Source of the DNA: a virus | IMG/VR virus record: IMGVR_UViG_3300031673_000011 | Coordinates: 22,567-86,566 of that record | DNA length: 64,000 nucleotides | Reading direction: 5' to 3' (one strand) | Part shown: positions 22,864 through 46,893 of the stretch, piece after piece | Layout: the number at the start of each line of letters is the position of its first letter | Position numbering within the stretch: the first letter of the stretch is position 1 | Notes under the pieces: generated by a model | The model's input: the letters and a program-made list of their open reading frames with translations, nothing else | Database searches by the model: none | Told to the model about the DNA's origin: nothing | Position numbers and translations under genes: made by a program

Positions 22864-23406
22864 ATGGAACAAAAAAATATAAACTTTTTAGTTTTAGCTT
22901 TTGTATTTCTAATTATAGGTGTAGCATTAATTGGTTCGGTTGCTTCAAATGTTAGTGATAGAACAGATAAAGTAACTATCCTCGATGAAGCATTAGACAT
23001 TAGTGCTGCTAGATTAGGAGATGCTATCTTAAGCATAGATGATACACATGCTTTTACCATAACTAATTACCCTACTAGTTGGAAAATTTTAGATTGTCCA
23101 ATTACTGACTTTGTATTTAAAAATCAAACAGGTGTTGCTACAACTGTAGCCTCAGACTATGCTTTTTTCCCAGCTAATGGAACTTTAGTATTAGTAAATT
23201 CATCTGTATACCATGATGATGGTACAATACAGATTCTTAATACAACAACTATGGATTATACATATTGTGCTGATGACTATCTTAATTCTACTTGGGGAAG
23301 ATCAGTATTAAACACAGTACCAGGTTTCTTTGCACTAGTCTTATTGGCTGGTTCATTATGGCTATTCTATAATGTTTTTAGGAATGTTGGAATTATCAAA
23401 GGATAA
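22864..23406 (+). CDS. spindle-virus capsid-like hairpin protein with inserted glycosylated domain
   Basis: FLVLAFVFLIIGVALIGSVASNV ... RSVLNTVPGFFALVLL; several N-x-S/T sequons. Confidence 0.6.
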   Translation: MEQKNINFLVLAFVFLIIGVALIGSVASNVSDRTDKVTILDEALDISAARLGDAILSIDDTHAFTITNYPTSWKILDCPITDFVFKNQTGVATTVASDYAFFPANGTLVLVNSSVYHDDGTIQILNTTTMDYTYCADDYLNSTWGRSVLNTVPGFFALVLLAGSLWLFYNVFRNVGIIKG

Positions 23407-23511
23407 AATTATATTAAGTTGAAATAGAAGAGAACTATTCTCTCTTCTTTATCTTGGTGTTACCACTTTTAAGTGATTAGAAAGATTTATAAAGGGTGAA
23501 TCTTTGTTAAT

Positions 23512-23928
23512 ATGATGGAAAATAAGAACTGGAAAATTTTTATATTATGTTTTATAGTAGTTCTTTTAATGATCTTTTTAGTCTTTTTAACAGTAGAATT
23601 ATTTAATAATGAATTCGCAAATGTTAATACAAATGAATCTATAAATGTTGACACAAGTGTTGATGTTAAAAATGTGATAGAATATATGAAAGATAATAAT
23701 ATTACTATCTATGGTTCTACGAAATGTTCTTATTGTCAAAAACAATTAAAAGAGTTTCAACCATATCAGGAAGAAGCTATTGAAGAAGGGGTTTTTATTT
23801 TTTGTGATTTAAATCAGGATATAGGTTGTATAGGAATAGAATCGGTTCCTTCTTGGAAAAAGGATGGAAAGATAGTTCATGAAGGATACTTACCACTTGA
23901 AAGTATTGGGGAAAACTATTCATGGTAA
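23512..23928 (+). CDS. membrane-anchored thioredoxin/glutaredoxin-like protein
   Basis: YGSTKCSYCQKQ, GIESVPSW. Confidence 0.8.
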   Translation: MMENKNWKIFILCFIVVLLMIFLVFLTVELFNNEFANVNTNESINVDTSVDVKNVIEYMKDNNITIYGSTKCSYCQKQLKEFQPYQEEAIEEGVFIFCDLNQDIGCIGIESVPSWKKDGKIVHEGYLPLESIGENYSW

Positions 23929-23961
23929 ATATTTATACAATTGAAAAGGAGGTGAAATAAA

Positions 23962-24282
23962 ATGTCAAATTTAAAAGAAACAGCACAGGCATATGAGCCA
24001 AAGAAAACACTTAACATTGCAGATTTAGATAGAGTTGACCTTACTTGGCCTGTTGAAAGTAGAACAGGTGTAACAGTAAAACAAGATGAAGAAGGAAAAG
24101 ATTATGAAGAATCTTATTCATATAAGGTTATGATTGTTAATGAGATAGAATATAGGGTTCCAAACACTGTGCTTGAAGAAATACAGAAGATGGTTGAATT
24201 AGTACCAGAATTACAATTTGTTAATGTTGATAAAACAGGTTCTGGTTATGGAACAAAATATTCTGTAAAGAAAGTAAAATAA
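23962..24282 (+). CDS. putative ssDNA-binding (OB-like) protein
   Basis: EYRVPNTVL..I and V.KTGSGYGTKYSV; strong GGAGGTGA RBS. Confidence 0.5.
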   Translation: MSNLKETAQAYEPKKTLNIADLDRVDLTWPVESRTGVTVKQDEEGKDYEESYSYKVMIVNEIEYRVPNTVLEEIQKMVELVPELQFVNVDKTGSGYGTKYSVKKVK

Positions 24283-24449
24283 TTACCAACTTTACAAAAT
24301 AAATTTATTATTTTTTGCCCCAATGTTTGTGGGGTTCATATTCATAAAAATGAAAAAAAAGAAAACTAAAATAGGTTTAGGCCAAAGAGTTGAACCAAAA
24401 ACAATTCCTGCAATAAGGAAAGGAAAACAAATATGGAAAAAGAATTAAA

Positions 24450-24839
24450 ATGGAAAAGAAAAAAGAACCACTAAGAATACAAATGAGAGAAAATCCTTGG
24501 ATAGTTTGGACATTTGCTTTGGGAATATTATTTGTTTTAATGTGTGTAATAAGTATTTATAAAACAGAAGTTAAAACAGAAAACGAAATACTTTGTTCTG
24601 TAATTGGAGCAACTCCAGCATGGGCAGATGCTAATGGGAAACTTATTTCTTATGGGGCTATAATACCAACAGAGCAATCAATAGATTTAGTAGGGGCTGT
24701 ATTAATCCCAGAGAGAATAAAGCTTCTTTATGTTCCAGGATGTAGTGCTTGCCAAAATCAAATTAATTACTTTAAGGAACAAGGCACTTGGGATAATTAT
24801 GTAAAGGAAGGTTTAACTGTGGATTGCAGTAAATATTAA
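24450..24839 (+). CDS. membrane-anchored thioredoxin-like protein (CSAC)
   Basis: TM plus LYVPGCSACQNQ. Confidence 0.6.
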   Translation: MEKKKEPLRIQMRENPWIVWTFALGILFVLMCVISIYKTEVKTENEILCSVIGATPAWADANGKLISYGAIIPTEQSIDLVGAVLIPERIKLLYVPGCSACQNQINYFKEQGTWDNYVKEGLTVDCSKY

Positions 24840-24840
24840 A

Positions 24841-25218
24841 ATGAACACAAAAAAATATATTGAAATGGTTAATAGGGCAGTAAAGGAGGGAAAGCATAAT
24901 AGACCAATAAAAGTAGTTTATACAAAAAACAAACCTATAACAGAAGGGCAACAAGGAGTTGCTTCTCATATTAATATGAAAAAATATGATAGAATTGCTA
25001 TTTGGAAAGGATTACCAAGAAATTATGAGGAGAAAATTAAAAGAGAAAAAGAATTAAGTGAAAAATTAGGAAAAAAAGTTGAAGTGATTACAAGAGAAGA
25101 TGCTCTTAGGCATGAATTATGGCACGTTCATAAACCTTATGCTTCGGAAAAAGAAATAAGATGTAAATTAGAAAAAAAAGATTTACCAAATAAATTACCA
25201 ACAAGGAGAAGATTCTAA
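24841..25218 (+). CDS. basic protein with HExxH (zincin-like) motif
   Basis: ALRHELWH. Confidence 0.55.
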   Translation: MNTKKYIEMVNRAVKEGKHNRPIKVVYTKNKPITEGQQGVASHINMKKYDRIAIWKGLPRNYEEKIKREKELSEKLGKKVEVITREDALRHELWHVHKPYASEKEIRCKLEKKDLPNKLPTRRRF

Positions 25219-25350
25219 TGATAATACACAACTCAAACGAATGTCTATGTAATGAATCACTTTCAAATGGAAATGAAAAATAAACTTATTATTTTTTTAC
25301 CCGAATGTTAGTCGGGTTCATAATCATAAAAAACAAAAGGGAGGTATAAA

Positions 25351-25659
25351 ATGTATATAGAATTACAAGGAAAAGAACTTAAGAAAGATTGGAAAGCTTT
25401 AGCAAAGAGTGCAAAAGAAAGTGACCCAAATGATAAAAGTATTGGAGAAGAAGAGAGATTATTAATTGATAATGATGAAGAAGAAATTGTAGCTTTAGAA
25501 TTTAATGAAGCTGATGAAAAAATATTCTTTGCTTTTACAAATAAGTATGGATATTTTTCATTCAGTATTCCTTTGAATGATGGTTTGATGTTTGAAATTG
25601 TAGAATGCTTAAAATCAAAAGGGAAAAAAATAGAAAGGTTAATTGATTTGAACAAGTAA
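25351..25659 (+). CDS. hypothetical protein
   Basis: GGAGGT RBS, 102 aa. Confidence 0.65.
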   Translation: MYIELQGKELKKDWKALAKSAKESDPNDKSIGEEERLLIDNDEEEIVALEFNEADEKIFFAFTNKYGYFSFSIPLNDGLMFEIVECLKSKGKKIERLIDLNK

Positions 25660-25683
25660 AATAATTAAGCACTATAAATTAAA

Positions 25684-27204
25684 ATGAAAAACAAAGTTTT
25701 ATTAATCACATCTACATTTGAAAATCCAATTGCTATATCAAAAGTTAATAATAATATTGGAGAGGAAAAATTTGGTTATGAGGAAGTAGAGAAACAGCAT
25801 TATGCTATTGGTCTGGCATATATCCATTCCTATATAGAATCAAAAGGATATTGTGTTGAGGGCCTTTATTTGAATAGTTACCCCTTTGAAGAATGCTTGG
25901 AAAGGATAAAAAATAAGTTGGAGTATTTTTCTCCAGACTTTGTAGGGATTCAGATTTTTTCTGTCAATAGAATTAGTAGTTATAAAATAATAGAATATAT
26001 AAGAGAAAATTATCCAAAAATAAAAATAATAGTAGGAGGATTACACGCTACTTTAATGTATCATCAAATCTTAGAAAAATATCCCTTTTTAACAATAGTA
26101 ATTGGAGAGGGAGAACTAACCTTTGTAGAATTACTTAATAGTTTTAAAGAAGGCAAGAAGAATATGAGGAATATAAAGGGGATTGCATATAAGATAAAAG
26201 GTAAAGTAATTGTAACAGATTCAAGACCATTAATAGAAAATCTTGATGAACTTCCATATCCTAAGCACGAAGTTTTTTTTAGGGAAAACAGGTCACAAGC
26301 TTGCCTTTTAACAACAAGGGGATGCCCTTTTAAATGTAGTTTTTGTTGTATGAATCCACTTACTAAAAGACGAGTTCGTTTTAGATCTGTTAAAAATGTT
26401 GTGGATGAAATAGAATATCTCGCAAAATCTTTTAAAAAAATTAAATTAATTTGGATACATGATGAAACATTTACCTTGGATAATAATAGGGTTATACAAA
26501 TTTGTGATGAAATAATAAAGAGAGGAATAAAAAAGGAATTTATAGCAAGTGGAAGAATAAAACCAATTTCAAAAAAGATGATAAAAAAAATGGAAGAAGC
26601 CAATTTTAAATATCTTATACTTGGGGTTGAAAGTGGATGTGATGATATTTTGAAAAAAGCACATAAAGGAATAACAAAAAAGGATATTGTAGAAACATTT
26701 AAATTATTCAAGAATTCTAAAGTAATCCTGAAAATTTTTATAATCATTGGACTGCCTGGAGAAACAAAAGAAACCATTATAGAAACTTCAAAATTCGTAA
26801 GGGATTTACAGAAGATAATATATATTTCTTTGGGTGATACTGCAAATTACTTAAGAATTTATCCAGGAGCAGAAGTGTATGAAATAGCAAAGGAAGCAGG
26901 TATTATAAGTGATAAATACTGGCTAACAGAACTTTCATCTCCAATCTTTACATTAGAAAATTCCCTTGAAACTCTTAATGAGTTTGGAGAGATTTTTATT
27001 AACTATACTGCATGGAGTAGAATGTTTAGATTAAAAGGATTTATCCATCAATGGATGATGATACCATACTTTTTGAAATATTTATTAACAACTAAACGCA
27101 AATTGCTATTACAAAAGATATTCTTTTTCATAAAATTAAATAAAGAGGGCATTTCTCCTCCCAATCCTGAAGGAATGGGTATCCGAAATGGGAGAATTAT
27201 ATGA
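25684..27204 (+). CDS. cobalamin-binding radical SAM protein (class B methyltransferase-like)
   Basis: GLAYI, IIVGGLHAT, GEGE, TRGCPFKCSFC, GVESG, IIGLPGET. Confidence 0.93.
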   Translation: MKNKVLLITSTFENPIAISKVNNNIGEEKFGYEEVEKQHYAIGLAYIHSYIESKGYCVEGLYLNSYPFEECLERIKNKLEYFSPDFVGIQIFSVNRISSYKIIEYIRENYPKIKIIVGGLHATLMYHQILEKYPFLTIVIGEGELTFVELLNSFKEGKKNMRNIKGIAYKIKGKVIVTDSRPLIENLDELPYPKHEVFFRENRSQACLLTTRGCPFKCSFCCMNPLTKRRVRFRSVKNVVDEIEYLAKSFKKIKLIWIHDETFTLDNNRVIQICDEIIKRGIKKEFIASGRIKPISKKMIKKMEEANFKYLILGVESGCDDILKKAHKGITKKDIVETFKLFKNSKVILKIFIIIGLPGETKETIIETSKFVRDLQKIIYISLGDTANYLRIYPGAEVYEIAKEAGIISDKYWLTELSSPIFTLENSLETLNEFGEIFINYTAWSRMFRLKGFIHQWMMIPYFLKYLLTTKRKLLLQKIFFFIKLNKEGISPPNPEGMGIRNGRII

Positions 27205-27342
27205 CGAACCTAATAACTGCTTTAATGGGAATATTGGATATTCTTGCAGGAATTTTGATACTTCTTATTGCATTTGACAAGATTTTCTTTATAATAATTG
27301 CAAGCTTGATAATATTAAAAGGGGGGATAAGTTTTTTTTAGA

Positions 27343-27900
27343 ATGGTGAATTATAATTATTATCTAGATAAACTTTTTGGAATAGAAGTTATAAGAATTT
27401 TTCCAAGAGAAGCAATTAAATATGCAAAAGATTATTTTCAAAATAAAGAAATTATTGCTCTTGAGATTGGAACATTAAAAGGAGAAAATACAAAATCAAT
27501 GTTTAAAAAATTAAATATAAGTAAGATTTATTTAATAGACCCTTATATAATTTACAATGGTCTTGATAGGGTATATGCTTATAGAAGTTGTAAAAAAGAA
27601 GCAATAAGAAGATTAAATAAGTTTAGTGATAAGATTAATTGGATTTTTAAATTATCTTCTGAAGCAATTGAAGATATAAAAGAGAAAGTTGATTTTATTT
27701 ATATTGATGGCAACCACGATTATTCTTTTGTGAAAGAAGACTTAGAGAATTATTGGGAAATTTTAAATATGGGGGGAATTATGTCTGGGCATGATATACA
27801 ATGCGAAGATGTTAGTAGAGCTGTTTTGGAATTTGCAAGAAAGAAAAACCTACAGGTTCTTTTCGGAGAAAGAAGAGATTGGTGGATAATAAAATGTTAA
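27343..27900 (+). CDS. class I SAM methyltransferase (Methyltransf_24-like)
   Basis: LEIGTLKG, LIDPY, DFIYIDGNHDY, GGIMSGHD. Confidence 0.88.
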   Translation: MVNYNYYLDKLFGIEVIRIFPREAIKYAKDYFQNKEIIALEIGTLKGENTKSMFKKLNISKIYLIDPYIIYNGLDRVYAYRSCKKEAIRRLNKFSDKINWIFKLSSEAIEDIKEKVDFIYIDGNHDYSFVKEDLENYWEILNMGGIMSGHDIQCEDVSRAVLEFARKKNLQVLFGERRDWWIIKC

Positions 27901-28484
27901 AATTAAAAGAGGAAATCATTAAAATGAAGAAAAGAATCAAATTTTTATTATGGCTTTTTAAAATTAAAAAATCAATTAGTCCTCCCCACCTTGTTAAAGA
28001 AAGAACAGTAAGATTTTACGGGAAAAAATATAAAATGACTGCTTTGGTTGAAACTGGAACTTATGAAGGGGAAATGGTTTCTGCGTTGAAAGAAGATTTT
28101 GAAAAAATATTCTCAATAGAATTGGATAAAACCTTAGCGACAAAGGCTAAAGAAAAATTTTCAAAAGATAAGAAGATTAAAATTATTTGTGGTGATAGTG
28201 GAGAAGAATTGAAAAATATATTAAAAATGAATCCCCATCCTTGTTTATTCTGGTTAGATGCACATTATAGTGGTGGTATAACTGCAAGAGGAAAAAAAGA
28301 AACTCCTATTGCTGAAGAATTAAAAGAGATTGTAAAACATTCAAAGAGAAATGTTATTTTAATTGATGATGCCAATGAGTTTGGGAAAGGGGATTATCCT
28401 TCATACGAAGAGATAAAAACAATCCTTAAAGGAGAATTTAACATACAAACAAAAAATAATATAATTAGGATTTGTCCAAAATGA
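27894..28484 (+). CDS. SAM-dependent methyltransferase-like protein
   Basis: VETGTYEG, SIEL, GDS, FWLDAH, ILIDD. Confidence 0.8.
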   Translation: MLKLKEEIIKMKKRIKFLLWLFKIKKSISPPHLVKERTVRFYGKKYKMTALVETGTYEGEMVSALKEDFEKIFSIELDKTLATKAKEKFSKDKKIKIICGDSGEELKNILKMNPHPCLFWLDAHYSGGITARGKKETPIAEELKEIVKHSKRNVILIDDANEFGKGDYPSYEEIKTILKGEFNIQTKNNIIRICPK

Positions 28485-29386
28485 TAAAACAAGATATTGA
28501 AATAGAAAAATTTGTAATTCCTTTTTCTAAGGGGGGACTTGGAGGTAGATTAAAATGTTTATTATATTCTAAAGAGATATTTTCAAATACAAAAAGAAAG
28601 ATATTACTCTATTGGGAAAATAACAAGTATTGTAATTGTAATTTTTCTGACTTATTTGATAAAGATATTGTAGAAATATCAAAAGAAGAATTAAGAGAGA
28701 TAATTAAAAGGGATAATTTTCAAATATTAACAAAAGATATAGATAATGAAAAAAAGTATATCTTGATTGGAGATTTAGGTAGAGCCTTTGCAGGATTTTA
28801 TGGTTCATTGGATATTCCTTTAGGAGAGAAGTTAAAAGAATTAAATATAAAGAAAGAAATACAGGAAGAAATTAATCAATATAAACTTCCAGAAGATGTT
28901 ATTGGGGTTCATATAAGAAGGGGAGATTTTAGGACAATTCCTGTGGGGGAGGTTTCTACAGATGAAAGGTTTATTGAAGCAATGAAAAAGGAGATTAAAT
29001 TAAATAAGAGAGTTGTATTTTTTTTAGCGACAGATGAAAAAGAAACAGAGGATAAGTTTAAGAGAATATTTGGTAATAAAATAATTTCCCATACCAAACA
29101 AATAGAAGAAAATTCTTTTAGGGAAGGAACTATTAAGGATGCTTTGATTGAATTATTATTATTATCAAAATGCAAAAAGATATTGGGGAGCTTTGGTAGT
29201 ACATTCTTGGAAATTGCGTGGGAATTTGGATATAGAATACCAAAGATTATAATTGTTAAAGATGAAGAAAGATTAAAAATATGCAAAGTAAAAGAGAGAG
29301 GGAAAGATAATTGGTTTAACCAAATTAAAAAAATGATATATGAAACTATCACCCCTTTACATATAAGACTATTAGATAAAATTTAG
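28481..29386 (+). CDS. GDP-sugar (fucosyltransferase-like) glycosyltransferase
   Basis: GGLGGRL, GVHIRRGDF, FLATD, ELLLLSKC..I.GS..STF. Confidence 0.82.
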   Translation: MIKQDIEIEKFVIPFSKGGLGGRLKCLLYSKEIFSNTKRKILLYWENNKYCNCNFSDLFDKDIVEISKEELREIIKRDNFQILTKDIDNEKKYILIGDLGRAFAGFYGSLDIPLGEKLKELNIKKEIQEEINQYKLPEDVIGVHIRRGDFRTIPVGEVSTDERFIEAMKKEIKLNKRVVFFLATDEKETEDKFKRIFGNKIISHTKQIEENSFREGTIKDALIELLLLSKCKKILGSFGSTFLEIAWEFGYRIPKIIIVKDEERLKICKVKERGKDNWFNQIKKMIYETITPLHIRLLDKI

Positions 29387-30473: not shown

Positions 30474-30528
30474 TGTTACCCCTTTTAAGTGGTGGGAAAC
30501 ATTTAAATACTCTTGATTTATTAATATA

Positions 30529-30743: not shown

Positions 30744-31307
30744 ATGATAGGAATAGGATTTATAATTTTAGCAACATTCTTGTTTTTAATATTTGTATCA
30801 ATAGGTGGGGTAGTATCTTCATATAATGGATTTGTAACATTAACACAAGATATTAGAACACAATTTTCAAATATTATAACAGAATATCAGAGAAGAACAG
30901 ATTTATTCTATAACTTGGTTCAATCAGTTAAATCTTTTAAGACACACGAAAAGTCTACCTTAAAGGAAGTAATTGAAGCAAGGAATATGAGCTTTGGACA
31001 ATCAAAGAAACAAGACATAAAAAATATGGCTAAACTTGATGGATTGTTTTCAAAACTGTTAGCAGTAGTTGAACAATATCCAAACTTAAAAGCAGATACA
31101 CAGCATAATAAGTTAATGGATGAGATAAGAATAACAGAAGATAGAGTAAATATTTCAAGAACAGACTATAATAATATAGTGAATACTTATAATGTAAAAG
31201 TTAAAAGATTCCCAAGTAATATTATAGCAGGAATGTTCAACTTTGATTTAGAAGGATATTTTAAAGGTCAAGAAGGAATAGAACAATCTCCAAAAATAAG
31301 TTTATAA
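30744..31307 (+). CDS. lemA: LemA family protein
   Basis: SYN..V, YQRR.DL..NLV.SVK...HEK.TL, VEQYPNLKAD, YN.KVKRFPSNIIAGMFNF. Confidence 0.93.
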   Translation: MIGIGFIILATFLFLIFVSIGGVVSSYNGFVTLTQDIRTQFSNIITEYQRRTDLFYNLVQSVKSFKTHEKSTLKEVIEARNMSFGQSKKQDIKNMAKLDGLFSKLLAVVEQYPNLKADTQHNKLMDEIRITEDRVNISRTDYNNIVNTYNVKVKRFPSNIIAGMFNFDLEGYFKGQEGIEQSPKISL

Positions 31308-33009: not shown

Positions 33010-34901
33010 ATGAAACAAGAACAAGAACTTAAAAACAAAATAGCAAAGAATCAAATGAAGCATGTTATTAAATTAATGGAAATGGCTAAAGAGGAAGGAA
33101 GACTTCAAGTACAATCAAAATTTATTAATGTGAAAGAAGATAGAAAAGCCATTAAAGATATTATTTATAAAAATCTTAAATTAATAGAAATGGCAGGAAA
33201 TAAGGAAGGTATTTGCCAGGAATTAGCTGATGGCATTTTATTGCATTTTATAGAAAAAGGAAAGAATAAAAAATGGAAACTGATGAAAGAACAGAGGGGT
33301 TAGAAGAAATATACAAGTATGTTTATACTTGTGATAAATGCACAACAAAATATGGTTCAGATAAGAAGGAATTAAAAGAACATATTTGCCCTATCTGCGA
33401 AAAAAAAGAATAAAAATATCTTTATTTTTATAAATGTTACTACTTTATAGTGATTAGAAAAGTTTATAAACCCTTGTTTCCTATTACATTTTAGGTTACT
33501 ACTATAAAATGACTATTGGAAGGTTTAAATAATGACTCTATTTAACATACTATCTTGTCGTGGATTTGGTGCAGAGGTTATTGAAAAAACAACACTTCAA
33601 TTTGGACCTTGTGCTGCTGCAAAGCTTGCCATAGTAGGATTATTTTTCTTGAATGCTATAGTAAGAAAATGGGGTGGCGAGGAACTCGGAATTGAATATA
33701 ATTTTTGGTTAGGTATGGCAGGAGCTTTCCTTGGATACCTTATACTAATTACTCTTACAGGAAAAGTTGGACTATCAATGATTGTAGGAATTGTTGTAAT
33801 GCTTATTGGAGGATACTTTGGAGGAAGTATTCTTGGAGAAGGTGGAGGAGAATATGATGATTGAAAAACTTAAAGAACCAATAGAAATAAAACTTGAACA
33901 ATATGAATGTGGACATTGCAAAAAGAAATCATATATAAATACAGAAGATAAAACAGCAAGAAAATTCTTCTGTCCCTTTTGTATGGAAGAAGCAAAGAAT
34001 GTTAGAATCTTTGATATAAAAATTGAAGGAATTGGAGAATACTGAAATGGAGAAAGAAGAAATGAATAAAAAAGAAGATTTAATAAAGGAAAAATATTTA
34101 CTTTATACTTTTTGGAGTTTAGGTTCTTTATTTGGAGTTATATCTTTTTTTCAATTATTTTTACCAAACAAACCAATACTAATTATTTTTTTATTACCTT
34201 TCATATATTTTACTTGTCTTAATGCATTAAAAATGGTTGGATTTTTTAGGACAAAGGATGAAAAATGATTGATTTAACAATAGCTAATAGTTGTGATAAA
34301 TTTATTTGTATGAGCTTTGATATTGGTTCTATTATAATTGGAATGTGTCTCGGAGTAATATTGATATATATTTTATTTAGAAAAAAATTGATGAGGAAGA
34401 AAGAATGAAAACAAATAATACTTTAAATCTTATATTATTTACAATAATGCTTATAGCATTTATTGGATGTATAATTTATATAGGTGAAAAAGCTGAAAAA
34501 GTAAATAAAATAATTTATGAGAATCCCAACATTGATTTTTATTATTATTGTCCAGACCATTTTGTAAGTGCATATTATAATTGTGAAAAGGGATTTACTT
34601 ATGAAAATTTAACTGGCAAATATTGTAATGGTACTTTAGTCTGCGAAAACGAGTATAAACTAAAATGAAAATAAAAAAGTATATGGATAAAACCTATAAA
34701 TTAGCTTTAGCAATTTCTTTCCTAAGTTATACAGCAAGTTTTTATTTAACACTTGTATTTTTTGGTTGGAAAGCAGCTTTAATATTAGTATTATTTGCTT
34801 TAGGATTATCTGGAATAATCATTTGGTATATACTATTACCAGAAATATATAAAAATATAGATGAAATAGATAAATTAAAAAAGAGAAAACAAAAAAGATG
34901 A
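33010..34901 (+). other. cluster of small ORFs, mainly membrane proteins plus a Zn ribbon (33857-34045)
   Basis: ORF track; class-A promoters at 33436 and 33495. Confidence 0.6.
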
Positions 34902-35548
34902 AAACAAAAGAACCTAAAGAAAATATGACAAACAAAAAGAAAAAGATTGAAAAAACAATAATTGAAGTGTGTATCAAAATAGCAAAACATAATGGAGGAG
35001 CATTAATCATATTAGGAGAAGCAAAATACAAGCCAATGGTAAATCAGGAAGATGTTAAGCACTTCAAAATAATAGAAAATCCAAAACTCCTACAATCTCT
35101 TGCAACAATTGATGGAGCTGTAATAATAAATAAAGATGGAGTAATGGAAGCACATGGAGTAAAAGTTGATGCAGATAAAATTTTAAAGAATTTTGGAACA
35201 AGACATGCTACTGCTTATAGTGTATCTTTTAATAAGTCCACAACTGCTTTTTTAGTTTCAAAAGGAGACGGTAAAGTTAAAATATTCAAAAAAGGAAACA
35301 TAGTTCAAATTGATGCTTTTGAAAGAGGAGTAGAAAAAAAGATACCAGAAATAAGTAAAATTCTTGAAGCACTGGGTGTTGGAAGTATTGGAGTAATTGG
35401 AATGGGTATTTTAACACCAATTATTGGAATTGCTGCTATTCCTGGAATAACAATCTTTGTGCTTGTTGGAGGAATTTATTATTTAATTAAAAAAGCAGAC
35501 GAATGGGGAGAAATTAATATAAAAACAAAGGAAGAAAAAATTAAATGA
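34898..35548 (+). CDS. DisA_N/DAC (diadenylate cyclase-like) domain protein with C-terminal TM
   Basis: GGALIILG, LATIDGAVII, FGTRHATA, LVS..DGKVKIF. Confidence 0.82.
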   Translation: MKTKEPKENMTNKKKKIEKTIIEVCIKIAKHNGGALIILGEAKYKPMVNQEDVKHFKIIENPKLLQSLATIDGAVIINKDGVMEAHGVKVDADKILKNFGTRHATAYSVSFNKSTTAFLVSKGDGKVKIFKKGNIVQIDAFERGVEKKIPEISKILEALGVGSIGVIGMGILTPIIGIAAIPGITIFVLVGGIYYLIKKADEWGEINIKTKEEKIK

Positions 35549-38106: not shown

Positions 38107-38107
38107 A

Positions 38108-39056: not shown

Positions 39057-40787
39057 CTAATTCAAACCAAAATTTATTATTAAGTTTCGTAATATTTGTG
39101 GGTCAATTAAACCTCTTTTTTTAATCCAATCATCTGTTAATATCTCAACTTTATTATGACATTCAATACACAAATAAATTATATTTTCCTTATTATCTCC
39201 TCCTCCATTCGCTCTTGGGATAATGTGATGTAGACTAATGGCATTTCTTTTTAAACATCTTGGGCATAAATTATTAACATAAATACTCTGAAATTTAAGT
39301 AAGTGATATTTTTTAAAATTATCAACAATTTTTATAAATTTCTCCCAACTATTAAAGTAATTTGTAACTAATTTTTTGTCTATCTCATTAAATTGATTTT
39401 CTAAAAATTTAGAAATTAGCTTTTGTTGTCTTATTTGTTTTGGTTTAACATTTTCTCCCATAATATACCATAATTCTTGAATACCGATATGATAAAGAAA
39501 ATCTTGAATTGTTTTATTTCCATAAATTAAAATTTCTTCTTCAAAAGGGATTTTTTTATAATTTTTATTGATTTCTTTTTTTATCTTAAGATACTCTCTA
39601 ACAATTTCAAGAATATTCTTCATTAAAATTAATATTAGCTGTTGATTCATATCATCTTCAATTTTTTCTTCAAAATGAACTTCACAATCTATAGGATAAA
39701 TATAAGTTGGTTTTTTTATTAAACTATTAAAAAAATAAATATTTCCTGAAAGAACTTGTCTTACTTTATATGCCCCTGGATGATTTCCAACAAAATCTAA
39801 AATTAATGCTTTTTCTTTCTTTGGATGTTTTCTCAATGCTCTACCTATCTGTTGAAGAATTAACCCATATGACATCGAAGGTCTTAATAATAATATGGCA
39901 TCAGCATCTGGAAAATCAAGACCCTCATTAAATATATTTACAGTAAAAATTAATTTAAGGTTACCATTTTTAAATTTATTAAAAATTTTATCCCTTTCCT
40001 TTGTATCACAAGTAAATTCTTCACAATCAATTCCTTCTTTTTTAAAAAATTTTACACATCTTTTTACATGCTTTATACTATTACAAAACCCAATGGTTTT
40101 TTTATTAATAGCATACTTTTTATATTTTTCTATAATAGCAGAATCCCTCTCATCAATAAATAATCTTTTATCTAAATCTTTCCTGTTATAATCAATTTTT
40201 CCTTTTTTTATGTTTGTATAATCTATATTATCTTTAAAACCATAATAGAAAAATTTAGTTAAATATCCCCTTTTTATAGCATCATGTAAATTTCCAACTG
40301 TAATTAAATTATTATTAAACAATTCTATAACATCATTCTTATCTAACCTAAATGGAGTTGCTGTTAATCCCAAAAGAAATGATTGAAAGTAATCAATTAT
40401 ATTCTTATAAGTTTTTGCTGGAGAATGATGTGCCTCATCAATTATTATATAATCAAAAACAGATTTATTTAAATTCTTGTAATAGTTTTTTAATAATTGG
40501 ATTGTCACAAAATTAAATTTTTTCAAATTATCAAAACTCTTTTCATTTTTAATTAAATGTAAATTATCCTTTGTAATAAATTCGGAAAAAGCATTATAGG
40601 TTTGTTTTACAAGCTCATTATGATGTGCAACATAAAGAACACTCTTATAATTCATAGAATCTTTAATTGCTATTAAAGTCTTTCCAAGACCTGGAGGCAT
40701 ATTTATTAAAATTTTGTCTGCTCCTTTATCTTTTTCTACCTTAATTTGTTCTATTGCAATTTCTTGAAATGGATTAAGTTCTTTCAT
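39057..40787 (-). CDS. SF2 DEAH helicase (ResIII-like) with C-terminal HNH domain
   Basis: PPGLGKT, IIDEAHH, GLTATP, FNEGLDFP, QQIGRALR; CPRC..HHIIP..GG...N...LCIECH. Confidence 0.92.
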   Translation of the reverse strand: MKELNPFQEIAIEQIKVEKDKGADKILINMPPGLGKTLIAIKDSMNYKSVLYVAHHNELVKQTYNAFSEFITKDNLHLIKNEKSFDNLKKFNFVTIQLLKNYYKNLNKSVFDYIIIDEAHHSPAKTYKNIIDYFQSFLLGLTATPFRLDKNDVIELFNNNLITVGNLHDAIKRGYLTKFFYYGFKDNIDYTNIKKGKIDYNRKDLDKRLFIDERDSAIIEKYKKYAINKKTIGFCNSIKHVKRCVKFFKKEGIDCEEFTCDTKERDKIFNKFKNGNLKLIFTVNIFNEGLDFPDADAILLLRPSMSYGLILQQIGRALRKHPKKEKALILDFVGNHPGAYKVRQVLSGNIYFFNSLIKKPTYIYPIDCEVHFEEKIEDDMNQQLILILMKNILEIVREYLKIKKEINKNYKKIPFEEEILIYGNKTIQDFLYHIGIQELWYIMGENVKPKQIRQQKLISKFLENQFNEIDKKLVTNYFNSWEKFIKIVDNFKKYHLLKFQSIYVNNLCPRCLKRNAISLHHIIPRANGGGDNKENIIYLCIECHNKVEILTDDWIKKRGLIDPQILRNLIINFGLN

Positions 40788-41106
40788 CTTGTAAATTATG
40801 GAATATTTTAGTTACTACAATAGGATTTATCCCAAGAACTTCAGATATTTTCTCTATTGTTCTAGTCTTTTTTGGAATATAGTATCCAGATAATATCTTA
40901 GAACCCATTGACTTTTCAACTCCAAGCATTTGAGAAAATTTACCAATTGAACCACATCTTAAAATTGCAAAAGAACGCAAGTGTGAAAGGGGCACAAAAC
41001 TTACATCAATTTTGCTCTGATTACCCTTACTTTCACTTAAATGGGTGAATTTTCGTTGAATTTCATCTCTCTCGTGTTGGTCAACTTTAATGCTGTCTTC
41101 GTTCAT
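40774..41106 (-). CDS. XRE-like HTH protein
   Basis: IGKFSQMLGVEKSMGSKILSGYYIP...IEKISEVLG; minus-strand class-A promoter at 41179-41216. Confidence 0.7.
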   Translation of the reverse strand: MNEDSIKVDQHERDEIQRKFTHLSESKGNQSKIDVSFVPLSHLRSFAILRCGSIGKFSQMLGVEKSMGSKILSGYYIPKKTRTIEKISEVLGINPIVVTKIFHNLQDERT

Positions 41107-41220
41107 TTTAGCTTTTGAATAATTTAGTTATTATTTCAGAAAATTTAATGCTTTTATAACTATATTATTAAGTATTTACCCTTTATAAATCTTTCCCACC
41201 ACTTAATAGTAGTAACAATA

Positions 41221-41391
41221 TTAACCACTACTTACAGAATTATAAGCACCCAATCCTAAACCTATAGCTAATCCAGCTACAACTGCTAACCCTATCATCT
41301 TAGTCCCAGTCCAAGCAATTTTAGCAACCTCTTTTCCAGGGTTGTCACCATCTCCCCACAATGTAAATCCAGGTTTGTTTTTATTAGTCAT
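41221..41391 (-). CDS. small membrane protein (56 aa)
   Basis: MTNKNKPG...MIGLAVVAGLAIGLGLGAY..*; not in the ORF track. Confidence 0.6.
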   Translation of the reverse strand: MTNKNKPGFTLWGDGDNPGKEVAKIAWTGTKMIGLAVVAGLAIGLGLGAYNSVSSG

Positions 41392-41412
41392 CTTCTTCCT
41401 TTAATATTAATT

Positions 41413-41911
41413 CTATAAATTTAACTCGTCAATTAATTCTTCGGCTGTTAGAACTTTCTTTTTTGATTTTTTATAAATCATTTTAAAACCATAATCATCT
41501 TTAGTCATTTCATGCTCTTCACCTTGTCTCATTCTATCAAAAGGCTTGCAATCTCTAAAGTTTTTAACTCTATCCTTATCTGCATCCCCTAATGGTTTCA
41601 TTAAAGGAAACCTATCTTTAGATTGTTTCCAATTCAAATTAGTAATTGGTTGTGATAAACTAGGTTTAAAAAAACTACCTTTTGTCTTTCTCTTTTTCAT
41701 TTTAAGGTAATGCGTTAACCATTTCTGATGTTGCTCCGATTAAAGGAACCCCAACCATTATCTTAGTAAAACCCTTTATCATTTTCTTTGGTTTTTGCTT
41801 TTTCTTTCCTTTTAGACCTTTCTTACTTGGAAGCATCTTCATAGATTCTCCAAGTAATCCTAAACTCATTACACCAGGGATGATTCCTGCTACTGTTTTT
41901 GCTGTACTCAT
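41413..41911 (-). other. two small basic ORFs (41413-41700, 41702-41911), probably virion-associated
   Basis: Tight operon packing; GDADKD.V.N..DC.P.D motif in 41413. Confidence 0.6.
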
Positions 41912-41913
41912 TT

Positions 41914-42864
41914 TTAATATAACCTCCTTTTTTTATTCCATAGGATTGAACTTTCTCCAGGATTATTAAATGTATTCGGAACATTCAAAAGGCTTGCTCT
42001 TTCACTTACTGCTGTAACTCTTGGCTCACCTTTAATTCCCATACCACTTGGTTGTGGTCCCATTTGCTGTGGTCTAAAGGCTTGTTGTTGAATTGGTCTT
42101 CCAAATTGGTCTATTGGTCTTCCAAATTGATCTACTGCTTGTGGTCTAGCTTGCCCTAAACGAGATAAACCTCTTCCAAAATCACTAAGTCCACCTATAA
42201 TTCTTTGCCCAACACTTGGAGTTTGTGGAACCCTTGCTTCCATTTGTCCCATTAACTCTGCTTGTTGTTGGGCTCTCATAACTTCCATTTCATGTTGTTG
42301 GTCTGGTTCTGCTAAAAATTGTTCTTCTGAAATTGGCTGCTGATATCTCATATCTTGCTGCATTGCCAATTGTTCTGCTTTTTGCTGAGCCATGCCCATT
42401 TGTTGTGCTTGAGCTAATCTAATTTGAGCTTTTTCTGCTGAAAGCATCTTTTTATAAATATGTGTTGGAACCTTTACTGCTCTCCCAGAGGGGAGAACAC
42501 GTACCCTAAAAGTTCCAGTAGGCCTACCTCTTCCAGCTCCACTATTCTTTTTTGTTTGCGTTATTGCTCTAACTAAAGAACCCTTTGGAGCAACTAAAGA
42601 AATTGCTTTTCTAGCAACTGCTGAAAATCTTCTCTCTCTTGCAGGAGTTTTATATGCTGATGCACCATATCCAATAAATCCTTTTGAAACTTTTTGTGCA
42701 AGAGATTTTGCTAATTTTGATGTTTTTCTTTCTTCACTAGAAGAATAAATAGCTTCTAGTTTTTTAAAAACATCAGGATCTCCAGCCCTTCTAACTGCTC
42801 TTTGATATTGCTCTGTACTAATATCAATTCCACTCTCTCTTTTTTCTCTTTTTTTCTTTGCCAT
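41914..42864 (-). CDS. basic, Gln-rich low-complexity protein
   Basis: 316 aa, AT-hook-like GRGRP, DQFGRPI duplication; class-B promoter at 42911-42927. Confidence 0.75.
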   Translation of the reverse strand: MAKKKREKRESGIDISTEQYQRAVRRAGDPDVFKKLEAIYSSSEERKTSKLAKSLAQKVSKGFIGYGASAYKTPARERRFSAVARKAISLVAPKGSLVRAITQTKKNSGAGRGRPTGTFRVRVLPSGRAVKVPTHIYKKMLSAEKAQIRLAQAQQMGMAQQKAEQLAMQQDMRYQQPISEEQFLAEPDQQHEMEVMRAQQQAELMGQMEARVPQTPSVGQRIIGGLSDFGRGLSRLGQARPQAVDQFGRPIDQFGRPIQQQAFRPQQMGPQPSGMGIKGEPRVTAVSERASLLNVPNTFNNPGESSILWNKKRRLY

Positions 42865-42927
42865 CTTTTATTTATTTGCCTTTTTCGTCATTTAATTAAA
42901 ACTCCTAAATTATTTAAATGTTTGTGA

Positions 42928-43687
42928 TTAACTATTGACCAACCTTGGAATTGCTAGGAAGTGTATTGTTAAAATTGTCATTGTTATTAAAATAGTAACT
43001 AATGCATAACCATATCCAATTGCCATTGCTAAAATAAATATTGATAAGAAGTTAAGAACTGTCACTTGTGAAACTCTTCCAATTGTAAATATTATCCAAA
43101 AGAGAACAACTAATCCAATTACAGCTAACCAAAAACTTTGGAATAAATCAACAACTAATAATGTCCAAAGATCAATCATTCTATTTCAACTCCTCCTTTA
43201 ATTCCATTCAATTTATTTATCATCAACTTCCAACACTCCTATTAGACCACCATTCTAATACTGATAAAACATAAAATACTGCTAGTAATCCTCCAGTAAA
43301 TGCCCAAGTTATAATTGCTGGTGTACAAGGCATAGCAGTGCATCCAAAAAAGTTTAATTCATTTGTAATTACAGTATAAAGTGAAGCAATTGGAATTGCT
43401 CCAACACCTAATAATATTGTAAATACTGGAAAAAACAGCGAGGTATCACTTTTAGTTACAAGATAAACCCCTAGAGCAATTGCTCCTCCTATTGCAGTTA
43501 AGGATACAAATGCTAATAAGAAATCAGTTCCACTCCATCCTGTAGGATCCAATATAAAATCCCATACTACTGTATCATTTGAACCAAAAGATGTTAATTC
43601 ATAATCAGGAGTCTCAACTACATTATAAAATATTATAATTGACATTTGTAAGATTAACAAAATCATAATCATATTTGCTAACTTCAT
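42928..43687 (-). other. two polytopic membrane proteins (42928-43179, 43223-43687)
   Basis: Hydrophobic ORFs downstream of the 916-aa gene. Confidence 0.7.
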
Positions 43688-43718
43688 TTTATTTTAACTC
43701 CATTTAATTTATCTATTT

Positions 43719-46469
43719 TCATCTTTGTGCCTGCCTATTTACATTTAAAAAATATGATATTGTGATAATTAATGTAAAACCTAATAAGATATAATTATTT
43801 ATAAAATCATTTCCAGAAAGATTATTAAAGTAAAAGAATCCTTGTCCTGTCATTTCTCCACCAACAAAACTTCCAGATAAACTTCCCATCAAAATAACAA
43901 AAGTCATAATAATTAAAAAGGCACCTGGATTTGAAGTATCACTTCCTAAATTATAATTTAATGTAGAAATTGCTAAACACATAAAGAAAAATACTATAAC
44001 GAGTCTATTAAAATCGTCTGTATCTGAATCATCTCCCCATTCATCTATAACATACTTCATATCTCTAATAAAAGTCAATATACCTGCTTTCCCTGCTGTT
44101 GGTATATCAATAACCCGCCAACGGGCATCTCCTTCTATTAAAACAGTTCCATTACCTATATCAAAATAATACTTTCCTTTAATATCATCCCCAAGATTAA
44201 CTGTGTGCATTACATAAATAGTGCATCCTCCAGGATTACAAGAAGACCATGTTGAATTTAAAACAGCTCCAGTAGAAGAATTTACTAATTTAAATGACAT
44301 ATTAATAATATTACTTTTAGATGAAACCAACTGATATGAAAAATTATAAGTTCCAGCTTGGATAATTCCTGTAGAAGGAGTCCTTGCATACTTTATACCT
44401 TCTATTTGTGAAACATAAATATCAGCACCTATTCCACATTGTAATTGTTGAGTATATTGTGTTTGGGTTGGTCTGATTGTTACTGTAGTTCCAACACAAC
44501 TAGCTATTGCAAAAGTAAATTTATGATCATAATCTGGATTAACCCAGAAAGTTACAAGCCCTGCATCATCTGTTGTTTCCTGTCCAACAATTGTCCAAAT
44601 ACCAGCAAATTGTCTTTCAACTGTAACTTCAACATTACTTATTTTATCACCCTCTTCATCTACAACTTGGATAGTAGAATAAATACCATCTGCACTTGAA
44701 AGAAGATATAAAATTTGATTTGTTGTCGCATTTGTTAAATCGCTTGAAGCATCATATTTCCTTTGGGGATATCCTTCTTTAGAATATTGAATTGAACGAG
44801 TATTGTGCATTGTAACATTTCCAGGGAACAAACAAAAGGTATAAAAATAATTTAAAGAACTATTTGAAAATAACAAAGATTTTTTATAGGTTCCATCCCC
44901 TAACCAATAACTCCAAGTTGAAGAATCTATTGTAGCATTTAGAGCAGAACTTGTTCCTTCATCTTTAAATGTAAAATTTATATATGGAACAGTTAATGTA
45001 GTATTGCATATTCCAAATAGAATTGGGGCAACAGTTTGATTATAGATTGTTGTATTCTCTGCATAAGTTGAACTTAAATTCCATTTGTAATAAAAAGTAT
45101 TTGCTCCAATTTGACTTGGGGGAACTTGTAATGTCTTACTTAATAAATAATTTTCTCCAGAACTTGTTACTGTTGCAGAATAACTTGTTCCATTATAAAC
45201 TAAATAAGCAGAACTTGGAGTATATCCTATTGGAGTTGTAATATTTAATGTATATACTTCAGAAGTAATTGTTTCATAAGTCAATGAATTATATGTATTT
45301 GAATTAATTGTTGAATTCAAACTAAAAGAATAATTAGAAGTAGCCCAAGAACAAGCATTATAAGTTAAATTTCCATAACAAGCATAAGAATTCCAAATAG
45401 AATTTCCTAAATTTATATTAAATAATTTACTAACATTGGTTGAATTAGTAAATAAATCAGTAACTGTTGTTTGATTAGATAGTGTTCCATTTAAATACCA
45501 TATATTATAAGTATTATTTATCCAAGAATAACTATTATTTACCCACGACATTGAAAGACTTACATTAAATAAATTACTTGGTGCTGTAAATACTTTATTA
45601 TTTGTTGGATAAGTTAAAGTAACATTTATCAAGGTCTCTCCTCCTTCTCCCTTAAATCCATAAAAATTTCCATCACTTGCTCCAGATATTAAATACCAAA
45701 TTCCATCTTTTTGGAAAACAGATGGTGCTGCCCATGCCCCAATATCTCCCAACGAATCATTTATTGTAAAATCAGGTAACCATTCTGTTCCACTCCAAGC
45801 AAAACCAAGAAATTTTCCATCATCTGCTCCTGGGTATCTTGTTCCACTTATCAAATACCAAATTCCATCTTTTTGGAAAACAGATGGTGTGTACCAAGCG
45901 TTTACATTTGTTGGAAGACTTGCATTTATTGTAAGATTTGTTACCCATTGAGTTCCACTCCAAACGAAACCCCAAAAACCTGCTATACTCTGACCTCCAG
46001 TTATCAGATACCAAGAACTATCTTTATAAAAAACATTTGGATTTCCCCTATCTGTTACACTTGGTAAGGAAGCATTTATTGTTAAATTAGTAACCCATTG
46101 AGTTCCACTCCAAGTATAACCATAAAATTTACCATTTAGTTCTCCACTTATTAAATACCAAGAAGAATCCTTGTAAAAAACCGATGGAGCTGAATTACCA
46201 CCAATATCAGGCAAGGAAGCATTTATTGTGAGATTTGTTGCCCAAGCAGTTCCAGTCCAAACATATCCAAAAAATGCCCCACTCTCCTCTCCACTTATTA
46301 GATACCAAGAACTATCTTTATAAAAAACAGAAGGTTTTGAATTAGTTCCTATATCTGGCAAACTTGCATTTATTGTTAAATCTGGAGTCCAGAATGCTGC
46401 ACTAACACTTCCTAAACTAACTAATAAAAACATTCCTAAAATTAAAGAGAAGATTAATTTATTTTTCAT
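43719..46469 (-). CDS. large glycosylated surface/spike (adhesin-like) protein
   Basis: Signal peptide, five ~47-aa repeats (TINASLP..PSVFYKDSSWYLISG), many sequons, three C-terminal TM helices. Confidence 0.8.
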   Translation of the reverse strand: MKNKLIFSLILGMFLLVSLGSVSAAFWTPDLTINASLPDIGTNSKPSVFYKDSSWYLISGEESGAFFGYVWTGTAWATNLTINASLPDIGGNSAPSVFYKDSSWYLISGELNGKFYGYTWSGTQWVTNLTINASLPSVTDRGNPNVFYKDSSWYLITGGQSIAGFWGFVWSGTQWVTNLTINASLPTNVNAWYTPSVFQKDGIWYLISGTRYPGADDGKFLGFAWSGTEWLPDFTINDSLGDIGAWAAPSVFQKDGIWYLISGASDGNFYGFKGEGGETLINVTLTYPTNNKVFTAPSNLFNVSLSMSWVNNSYSWINNTYNIWYLNGTLSNQTTVTDLFTNSTNVSKLFNINLGNSIWNSYACYGNLTYNACSWATSNYSFSLNSTINSNTYNSLTYETITSEVYTLNITTPIGYTPSSAYLVYNGTSYSATVTSSGENYLLSKTLQVPPSQIGANTFYYKWNLSSTYAENTTIYNQTVAPILFGICNTTLTVPYINFTFKDEGTSSALNATIDSSTWSYWLGDGTYKKSLLFSNSSLNYFYTFCLFPGNVTMHNTRSIQYSKEGYPQRKYDASSDLTNATTNQILYLLSSADGIYSTIQVVDEEGDKISNVEVTVERQFAGIWTIVGQETTDDAGLVTFWVNPDYDHKFTFAIASCVGTTVTIRPTQTQYTQQLQCGIGADIYVSQIEGIKYARTPSTGIIQAGTYNFSYQLVSSKSNIINMSFKLVNSSTGAVLNSTWSSCNPGGCTIYVMHTVNLGDDIKGKYYFDIGNGTVLIEGDARWRVIDIPTAGKAGILTFIRDMKYVIDEWGDDSDTDDFNRLVIVFFFMCLAISTLNYNLGSDTSNPGAFLIIMTFVILMGSLSGSFVGGEMTGQGFFYFNNLSGNDFINNYILLGFTLIITISYFLNVNRQAQR

Positions 46470-46542
46470 AGTTTACTCCCAAGTATAAATAACCTTTCAA
46501 CACCAAATATCAAATTCATTTCCATTTTCAAAAGGAATGAAT

Positions 46543-46893
46543 TTAATATTGCTGATATTGTGGTTGTGCTGGTTGTTGTCCCCCTTTCATTATCAATCCA
46601 ACAGCACCAAGGATAAGCATAATAAGTATAAGTGGCGGGCCTATCGATAACATAGCACAAGTTGTAGCATGCGTATTCCCAAGAGATTCATTAAAACAGG
46701 TAGTATTACTCCCGATGCCATTACAGAGGTCTGTTGTACTTTTACAATTCAATACACTTTGGTCTCTTAATCCATCAAATTGATCTTGGATAGTTGGCCA
46801 AAACGAAGTTATTAGTAAAACAGATACCACAAGCATAACAATACCGAAAATAAAAGACATTTGTCCTCGCTTATTATCCATTATTGTATTCAT
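46543..46893 (-). CDS. capsid/pilin-like hairpin protein with class III signal peptide
   Basis: NKRG|QMSF then hydrophobic helix, Cys loop and second hydrophobic helix; GGAGG RBS. Confidence 0.65.
   Translation of the reverse strand: MNTIMDNKRGQMSFIFGIVMLVVSVLLITSFWPTIQDQFDGLRDQSVLNCKSTTDLCNGIGSNTTCFNESLGNTHATTCAMLSIGPPLILIMLILGAVGLIMKGGQQPAQPQYQQY

Follow-up and report, generated by a model that had tools for sequence, protein, structure and literature searches.

The question raised by this locus is whether three short hydrophobic proteins, encoded at distant points of a long stretch of viral DNA, are capsid proteins of the spindle-virus type, and what kind of virus would carry them. The stretch analysed here, termed the window, comprises 64,000 nucleotides, corresponding to bases 22567-86566 of one contig, 86,566 bp in length (IMG/VR record IMGVR_UViG_3300031673_000011), and covers approximately three quarters of the genome. 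Window coordinates are positions within this stretch, and those marked “contig” refer to the whole record. In a preliminary description of the window, three open reading frames (ORFs), P0001 (22864..23406, plus strand), P0002 (31400..31822, plus strand), and P0003 (46543..46893, minus strand), were regarded as dispersed paralogues of the spindle-virus capsid protein. The present analysis leads us to regard the source, with good confidence, as an uncultured archaeal virus having a complete circular genome of ~86.4 kb and a capsid of fusellovirus-type α-helical hairpins, similar to VP1 and VP3 of Sulfolobus spindle-shaped virus 1 (SSV1). Its probable major capsid proteins are P0004 (76 aa, contig 5492-5722, minus strand) and the adjoining P0005 (86 aa, contig 5222-5482, minus strand), whose genes lie just outside the window, and it is only through this pair that the link of P0001 and P0002 to the fusellovirus capsid becomes visible.

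The case for homology with fusellovirus capsid proteins rests mainly on a diverse profile constructed from 25 family representatives (A5) and on reciprocal matches of PHROG profiles. When A5 was searched against 177,635 distinct PDB sequences, VP1 of SSV19 (7xdi_A) was the sole chain retrieved at an expectation value (E) <= 10, with E = 7.8e-10. The same chain was the top PDB match of P0004 alone by phmmer (E = 1.1e-4, residues 4-69 aligned to 18-81). On the SSV1 record A5 recognised VP1 (1.7e-13) and VP3 (7.2e-7), and on His1 it recognised VP21, the product of ORF21 annotated with two transmembrane segments (3.8e-4). In the reverse direction, phrog_11172, which scored 1.5e-75 on SSV1 VP1 itself as a control mark, matched P0004 (1.6e-7), P0002 (6.8e-6, profile positions 64-131 of 137), P0005 (3e-4), and P0001 (2.5e-3). 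The VP3 profile phrog_5402, with a control mark of 6e-44 on SSV1 VP3, matched P0005 (8e-8), P0004 (4.9e-5), P0001 (3.6e-4), and P0002 (3.3e-3). At E <= 1e-3, phrog_11172 was found at three places on the 86-kb contig and in none of 14 control cellular genomes. It can be observed that the similarity of the family to VP1 and VP3 is significant over both helices. The structural comparison points in the same direction. The AlphaFold2 (AF2) model of P0004, with a predicted local distance difference test score (pLDDT) of 76, contains helices at residues 2-32 and 41-73 and a short helix at 34-39 in the turn, that is, the two long hydrophobic helices and short loop of the VP1 fold. In a Foldseek search of this model against PDB, the top match was again 7xdi_A (probability 0.99, template modelling (TM) scores of 0.71/0.77, 34% identity), and against BFVD a fusellovirus VP3-like protein was within the top three. 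The profile and structure comparison with SSV1 VP1 and His1 that had been proposed beforehand gave matches for P0004 and P0005 by A5 and by PHROGs, and for P0004 also by AF2/Foldseek.

Several observations weigh against this homology and should be considered together. The Foldseek E values were not significant (0.15 for PDB, 0.13 for BFVD), as is usual for hairpins of 70 residues. Short hairpins of the P0004 type also resemble ATP-synthase c subunits, with a TM score of ~0.55, below that for 7xdi_A. Moreover, when P0004 was compared by tblastn with 50,697 records of phages and archaeal viruses, nothing was returned at E <= 1. Finally, the close-family profile (A2) reached VP1 only at E = 1.3e-4, followed by SERINC3, a membrane protein, at 0.057, implying that hydrophobic composition adds to the scores.

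The relation of the three flagged ORFs to this pair was then decided by a family hidden Markov model (HMM) built from the P0004 family and searched against all 1160 stop-to-stop ORFs of at least 30 aa on the contig. Five proteins were matched, P0004 (1e-46), P0005 (1.5e-40), P0001 (2.2e-12), P0002 (6.6e-8), and P0127 (1.6e-6), the next best ORF having E = 0.67, and P0003 was not listed at E <= 10 among these ORFs. Since P0001 and P0002 are matched and P0003 is not, two of the three are paralogues. The earlier claim of three capsid paralogues thus stands for P0001 and P0002, whose fusellovirus-type homology is indicated by A5, PHROGs, and hhalign, and falls for P0003, which was undetectable by HMM, hhalign, A5, or BLASTP. 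On the sequence evidence, four or five genes assignable to the capsid family are dispersed over the genome. All three ORFs exist at the coordinates first given, and a Kyte-Doolittle scan supported the two hydrophobic segments described for each in P0001 (180 aa; 3-32 and 147-173) and P0003 (116 aa; 9-36 and 76-107, with four cysteines in the loop between them), and gave three for P0002 (140 aa; 1-29, 64-85, and 103-137). The motif said to be shared by P0001 and P0002 is real, although looser than the pattern claimed, reading VLNTVPGFF in P0001 and LVNLVPIFF in P0002. Pairwise BLASTP among the three proteins gave no significant similarity (E = 9.0, 2.0, and 0.054), so that paralogy is not directly visible from them, and a Pfam scan of the three yielded nothing above threshold.

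P0004 and P0005 can be aligned with P0001 over both of its helices and with P0002 over its C-terminal half. In P0001, the family HMM matched both helices, the N-terminal one at 15-50 and the C-terminal one at 146-186, and A5 matched the same two elements (5e-10 for the C helix, 9.9e-5 for the N helix). Comparison of the P0001 family (A4, 31 sequences) with the P0004 family by hhalign gave a probability of 97.6% and E = 2.7e-12 over 39 C-helix columns. The AF2 model of P0001 (pLDDT 79) consists of a helix at 3-30, strands between 36 and 147, and a helix at 151-175. P0001 can thus be described, from HMM, hhalign, PHROG, and AF2 results, as a capsid-family hairpin that departs from the VP1 fold in carrying a β-rich domain of ~110 aa, with six N-X-S/T sequons, as its loop. 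No convincing neighbour of this ectodomain was found among PDB folds, the best being phage tail-tube proteins (TM <= 0.3, E ~0.01). P0002 combines an N-terminal membrane anchor, a charged linker, and a capsid-family hairpin (~62-140), as judged from HMM, PHROG, A5 (1.5e-12), and direct tblastn against the SSV1 VP1 region (E = 1.1e-5). Furthermore, P0001 and P0002 each have full-length relatives among the capsid-profile matches, for example P0416, with 54% identity to P0002, and the P0001 family alone comprises 55 clusters at 90% identity. Because of these full-length relatives, the loop-insertion and N-extension architectures are read as recurrent sub-families and not as accidents of one genome. 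The fifth match, P0127 (69 aa, 41702..41911, minus strand), is less certain. A segment resembling helix 2 comes first in it, followed by a linker rich in Lys and a segment resembling helix 1, so that the pieces of the HMM match in swapped order. In L026, a related locus with two capsid genes in tandem, it aligns collinearly through the stop codon that separates them (E = 7e-6), and A5 matched it at 2.6e-4, but no segment of it exceeded the Kyte-Doolittle threshold. P0127 may be a permuted capsid derivative, or the match may be due to chance, the evidence being weak.

The genome itself is closed. The contig termini overlap by 142 bp with one mismatch (window 63859-64000 against contig 1-142), and an ORF of 1714 codons runs in frame and without a stop through the junction. 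The overlap and the continuous ORF together indicate that the contig is a complete circle of 86,424 bp, and the early claim of a genome longer than 64 kb is therefore confirmed. Two entries are at odds with this closure, since IMG/VR labels the record linear and CheckV estimates its completeness at 55%; the single mismatch in the overlap may be the reason why no terminal repeat was called. The guanine-plus-cytosine content is 28.7%, and the metagenome sources are of mesophilic type.

A proposal for how such proteins could form one capsid follows from their layouts. SSV1 VP1 is proteolytically matured, and P0002, having a layout like that of the SSV1 VP1 precursor, may likewise be a processed minor capsid protein. 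The capsid-family loop holds an invariant Asn (N38) in a Y-N-x-S/T context, and this, together with the glycosylation genes of the virus itself, suggests that the loop would be exposed and N-glycosylated. In SSV19, the two helices of VP1 are described as packing into seven helical strands, with the termini inward and the loop forming the outer surface (PMC9351363). As the ~110-aa domain of P0001 sits at this loop, P0001 might co-assemble into the lattice and display a folded, β-rich, sequon-rich domain on the virion surface, for decoration or binding. In the resulting mixed lattice, the 76- and 86-aa hairpins would form the shell, P0001 would stud it with a glycosylated binding or shielding domain, and P0002 (precursor-type) and P0127 (permuted) could provide specialised lattice elements, such as those at the tips or where strands start. 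Such a mixed lattice would be a route by which a simple capsid protein could package 86 kb or more. The closed 86.4 kb raises a question of scaling, that is, how a lattice of 76-residue hairpins relates to genome size, and the folded domain of P0001 at an outer surface of the SSV19 type represents a testable case of capsid-protein neofunctionalisation. The boldest form of this proposal, in which the present genome is the founding complete member of a globally abundant and previously undescribed spindle-type group of viruses of Nanobdellota with the largest VP1-hairpin genomes and a mixed-lattice capsid, is conceivable but doubtful.

The size of the genome also bears on the shape of the particle. 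At 3-6 times the genomes of cultured VP1-type viruses (SSV1, 15.5 kb; His1, 14.5 kb), with four or five capsid paralogues that may change the architecture and with one of these, P0001, bearing a large domain in its surface loop, a virus of VP1 type could form a non-classical particle, either pleomorphic, bacilliform, or a giant tailed spindle; a likeness between the VP1 fold and the capsid protein of APBV1, a rod-shaped virus, has been pointed out (PMC9351363). We consider this unlikely. As far as the groups with such a capsid protein are described in two reports, they are spindle-shaped or predicted to be so (PMC9894754; bioRxiv 10.1101/2025.02.15.638363), and strand sliding in the SSV19 lattice is stated to let capsid size vary (PMC9351363). 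A spindle-shaped virion built from VP1-type hairpins is the form predicted for this virus.

Fuselloviridae are among the closest known systems. In common with VP1 and VP3, the major proteins are ~75-aa hydrophobic two-helix hairpins with a significant full-length profile match, and the paralogous capsid genes are in tandem (P0004-P0005 compared with VP1-VP3). Likewise, P0002 has an N-terminal extension as in the VP1 precursor ORF, and a sequon is present in the surface loop. Unlike Fuselloviridae, the genome has its four or five capsid-family genes dispersed, one of them with a loop ectodomain of ~110 aa. It is 86.4 kb long compared with 15.5 kb for SSV1, and for replication it encodes MCM and not the SSV set. 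A tblastn comparison at E <= 0.01 revealed no other gene shared with SSV1 or His1, apart from a 34-aa match (E = 0.004). The low GC content (28.7%) and the mesophilic-type sources are further differences. The likeness to His1 (Halspiviridae) consists in VP21, which belongs to the same capsid family by weak matches (A5, 3.8e-4; phrog_11172, 1e-3) and is missed by A2. His1 differs in its linear 14.5-kb genome and protein-primed polymerase. The spindle viruses of Nitrosopumilus have genomes of ~27-29 kb.

A spindle-type genome above 64 kb is not unprecedented, since a predicted spindle virus (tepeuvirus) of ANME-1 with 72.6 kb, not circularised and the largest both in its report and among the predicted ones met in the literature searched, has already been published (PMC9894754). 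The viruses of that report, as far as they are described there, resemble the present one in being metagenome-derived, with large genomes, hydrophobic α-helical capsid proteins, and auxiliary metabolic genes. Some have two divergent capsid genes, and their genomes are split into structural and enzymatic arms, as is the case here. Compared by description, the present genome differs in being closed at 86.4 kb and in having MCM with no polymerase found, compared with their family B polymerases (PMC9894754). A second parallel is given by DNSV-1 and DNSV-2 of Nanohaloarchaeota, hypersaline viruses of 21-22 kb described with two capsid genes, an AAA+ ATPase, and a tyrosine integrase (bioRxiv 10.1101/2025.02.15.638363). 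According to that account they share with the present virus an association with DPANN archaea, which is putative here, two paralogous capsid genes, and a very large gene (>1900 codons there), and are distinguished from it by the 86.4 kb, serine recombinase, and extra capsid paralogues found here, and by a host that is deduced here from indirect evidence. No description of large spindle viruses of Pacearchaeales- or Woesearchaeales-type archaea was found in the literature searched, in which subscription journals were thinly represented. Metagenomic spindle-type viruses are thus an established theme, within which this is a new, large, paralogue-rich lineage; its novel features are the closure of the genome at 86.4 kb, the dispersal of four or five genes of the capsid family, and the paralogue with the loop insertion, none of which was found described before in the literature searched.

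The gene content was examined by scanning all 21 ORFs of at least 280 aa against Pfam and/or PHROGs, most ORFs below 150 aa lying outside the scan. Among these 21, no terminase, portal, or HK97 or double-jelly-roll capsid was found, so that the HK97-fold capsid, portal, and large terminase that define Caudoviricetes are absent from this set, and the statement made earlier for the window extends to the whole contig. One “terminase small subunit” PHROG points the other way, matching a 156-aa HNH endonuclease through its HNH domain; this protein matched 37 PHROGs, and most of the 25 listed are HNH endonucleases. The genes for replication and DNA modification encode an MCM helicase, C5 and MT-A70 methylases, a helicase-HNH fusion, a ParB-like nuclease, a serine recombinase, and an RNA ligase, and no DNA polymerase was found. 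Further enzymes are a B12-binding radical-SAM enzyme and a protein with a diadenylate-cyclase domain, and the envelope or surface genes include LemA, an S-layer-like protein, and a sugar-nucleotide/glycosyltransferase cluster.

The remaining contig had been proposed as the place to search for a replicase and a packaging ATPase. An MCM helicase is present on the contig, and no packaging ATPase was securely identified. A candidate for the latter is a 331-aa P-loop protein (contig 18763-19758), whose sole PHROG match is phrog_5484 (SSV1 B251/His1 ORF16; E = 2e-4, positions 23-233 of 239). It is accompanied by a 152-aa neighbour, and both are encoded near the capsid gene in three related loci (L026-L028). 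It has no Pfam or PDB match, and tblastn against phages gave no match. The absence of a secure counterpart to the signature AAA+ ATPase of spindle viruses is a point against the virus being of this type, to which it should be added that phrog_5484, with a per-genome E of 1.5e-5 on the N-terminal half of the 331-aa protein, also occurs in 9 of the 14 control genomes at E <= 0.01, and that the pairwise phmmer result is weak. A separate 257-aa P-loop protein (8308-9081) was tried in this role and rejected, its relatives being hypothetical proteins of large bacterial phages and its Pfam matches weak ones to generic AAA/STAND families.

This gene content might suggest that the element is no virus, and instead an archaeal plasmid of large size, an element that forms vesicles, or a piece of a small DPANN chromosome, with membrane proteins of capsid-like type. 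MCM, the methylases, the ParB-like nuclease, and the serine recombinase would fit such an element, together with numerous genes of metabolic or auxiliary function, as would the insecure packaging ATPase, the binning of related contigs in cellular metagenome-assembled genomes (MAGs), and the existence of small plasmid-like elements with spindle-virus capsid genes, of which there is a description (bioRxiv 10.1101/2025.02.15.638363). This is nevertheless judged improbable, because the 86.4 kb form a closed circle on which no tRNA gene was found and which has no ribosomal or other core cellular gene among ~60 scanned proteins, because a module of capsid, giant glycoprotein, and small proteins is common to IMG/VR contigs, and because the capsid gene was found in just 2 of 401 sampled genomes from the candidate host phylum and hence is no cellular gene of this group. 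In addition, the related contig from the MAG labelled Candidatus Pacearchaeota (G001) has homologues of genes of the 86-kb virus along the 17.6 kb that were fetched, and no integration border was seen there.

Regarding the host, the chances that it is a DPANN archaeon (Nanobdellota) appear even or slightly better. The assignment draws on the presence of one related contig in G001, whose phylum is the candidate host phylum, and on affinities of two proteins. Homologues of the S-layer-like protein (712 aa, 17438..19576, plus strand; PF05124 S_layer_C, E = 5.4e-11) were present in 55 of 201 genomes searched, all from that phylum, with a best identity of 44%. The ESM Atlas clusters nearest to this protein, like the top structural cluster of MCM, are mostly from Nanobdellota. 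As a side observation, full-length homologues of the S-layer-like protein are located on large cellular contigs of the candidate host phylum. Set against this host are another related contig in a MAG labelled Mycoplasmatota, although composition binning is able to misplace viral contigs, and the above rarity of the capsid profile, which indicates that the virus is not a common provirus in the candidate phylum. If the host is a DPANN archaeon of ~0.7-1.5 Mb, the virus genome would amount to 6-12% of the size of that of the host.

P0003 is a different case from P0001 and P0002. A5 gave no match to it at E <= 1, hhalign between its family (A3) and the P0004 family (A2) gave a probability of 0.2%, and BLASTP against 149 capsid-profile representatives returned 0 matches. 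Its own family comprises 119 clusters. Matches to DUF7649, T4SS_pilin, and DUF7287 were obtained below the curated Pfam cut-offs, and some members of the family carry a precomputed PF23958. A K/R-G-Q motif ahead of the first helix is kept in 30 aligned members. A K/R-G-Q followed by a hydrophobic stretch is the mark of a class III (pilin-type) signal peptide, which the N-terminus of P0003 looks like. The protein is therefore best described as a conserved two-helix membrane protein with four cysteines, separate from the capsid family, and possibly as a minor virion or envelope-modifying protein. The families of P0001 and P0003 both occur on large contigs of matching sizes (70,454, 44,428, and 30,552 bp), and on this ground both look like regular components of the virus group. 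That the flagged proteins are no more than common small membrane proteins or pilin-like ones, their similarity to spindle-virus capsid proteins arising from hydrophobic composition and chance, is very improbable: the insignificant pairwise BLASTP, the N-terminus, sub-threshold pilin-type matches and PF23958 of P0003, and the score of A2 on a SERINC protein would agree with it, but A5 finds VP1 alone among all PDB sequences searched, the VP1 PHROG occurs at three places on the contig and in none of the control genomes, hhalign links P0001 with high probability, and the alignments span both helices, in order and with conserved motifs, so that P0001 and P0002 contradict it and it could hold for P0003 alone.

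The virus with fusellovirus-type hairpins also has a conserved gene order around its capsid genes. On the minus strand, P0004 and P0005 stand at the start of a long late block, in which they are followed by the 1714-aa ORF and by proteins of 403, 207, 232, and 234 aa, and further on by a 1351-aa protein, the glycosylation cluster, P0003, and a 916-aa protein, P0127 being next in order. The 1714-codon ORF starts at contig 5009, directly downstream of P0004/P0005, and crosses the circular junction, its C-terminal end lying at 63723..63998 (minus strand) of the window. The protein has a signal peptide and 133 N-X-S/T sequons; the 1669-aa part that was searched gave no Pfam, PHROG, or PDB sequence match, and partial homologues are found downstream of the capsid genes in two related loci (L025 and L027). 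The four genes that follow (60532..63726, minus strand) may form a module for the virion tail or for assembly. In all five longer loci (L024-L028), the capsid gene is followed by homologues of the 207-, 232-, and 234-aa proteins in unchanged order, and the 403-aa protein is matched in L024 only. None of the four has a Pfam match, and the 234-aa protein has no PDB sequence match.

The 916-aa protein (43719..46469, minus strand) is a candidate membrane glycoprotein, with a signal peptide, 36 N-X-S/T sequons, and three C-terminal hydrophobic segments. It has no Pfam, PHROG, or PDB sequence match, and a homologue with 32.5% identity over 532 columns is present on L024. Its earlier designation as the adhesin is not sustained, given the lack of any database match, and the 1714-aa protein next to the capsid pair would be at least as good a candidate. 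The sugar-nucleotide and glycosylation cluster (47302..53606, minus strand), recognised by Pfam and PHROG matches, is located within this late block and encodes a glycosyltransferase, a DegT aminotransferase and a cupin, a GDP-mannose 4,6-dehydratase, a GtrB-like glycosyltransferase, and a methyltransferase. The 1351-aa protein (window 54755-58810, minus strand) stands in sharp contrast to the neighbouring glycoproteins, being without cysteine, N-X-S/T sequon, hydrophobic segment, or Pfam or PHROG match; a partial homologue occurs in L025.

The capsid family is widespread in metagenomes. At 90% identity, the P0004 family amounts to 1224 clusters with E <= 0.01 (out of 1226 candidates). At 50% identity, the capsid profile retrieved 326 representatives with E <= 1e-3 from 1.84 billion, and 71 of the 326 reached E <= 1e-10. 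By size, the 149 listed representatives divide into 34 of up to 100 aa, 78 of 101-160 aa, and 37 above 160 aa. At least 395 metagenome loci of the family are confirmed, compared with only four confirmed IMG/VR loci with its peptide patterns. From the 1224 metagenome clusters set against these four loci, it follows that current virus-detection pipelines probably miss a sizeable group of archaeal viruses. Among 86 related loci, two capsid-like ORFs are present in 60, one in 23, and three in three, these counts being lower bounds as the loci are cut by short flanks. A contig of 171,723 bp carries two capsid-family proteins (P0082 and P0095), and another related contig measures 93 kb. Many capsid-carrying metagenome contigs (L034-L113) end at or soon after the capsid gene, which suggests that assemblies often break within the giant ORF downstream.

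Other genes of the genome are mentioned here as minor observations. The diadenylate-cyclase (DAC) domain protein is encoded at window 34898-35548 (plus strand) and, if a true cyclic di-AMP synthase, would be an unusual auxiliary gene for an archaeal virus. The LemA-family protein is located at 30744-31307 (plus strand). Outside the window, at contig 14908-16698 (plus strand), lies a DUF5131/radical-SAM-like protein of 596 aa, with a weak match to an intein splicing domain at residues 139-475 (25.3 bits, the cut-off being 35.8 bits). Directly behind the serine recombinase, with its resolvase domain, lies an ORF in which a short N-terminal part similar to tyrosine integrases is fused to an HNH endonuclease (both genes at window 3053-4263, plus strand), and further HNH and homing endonucleases are scattered across the genome.

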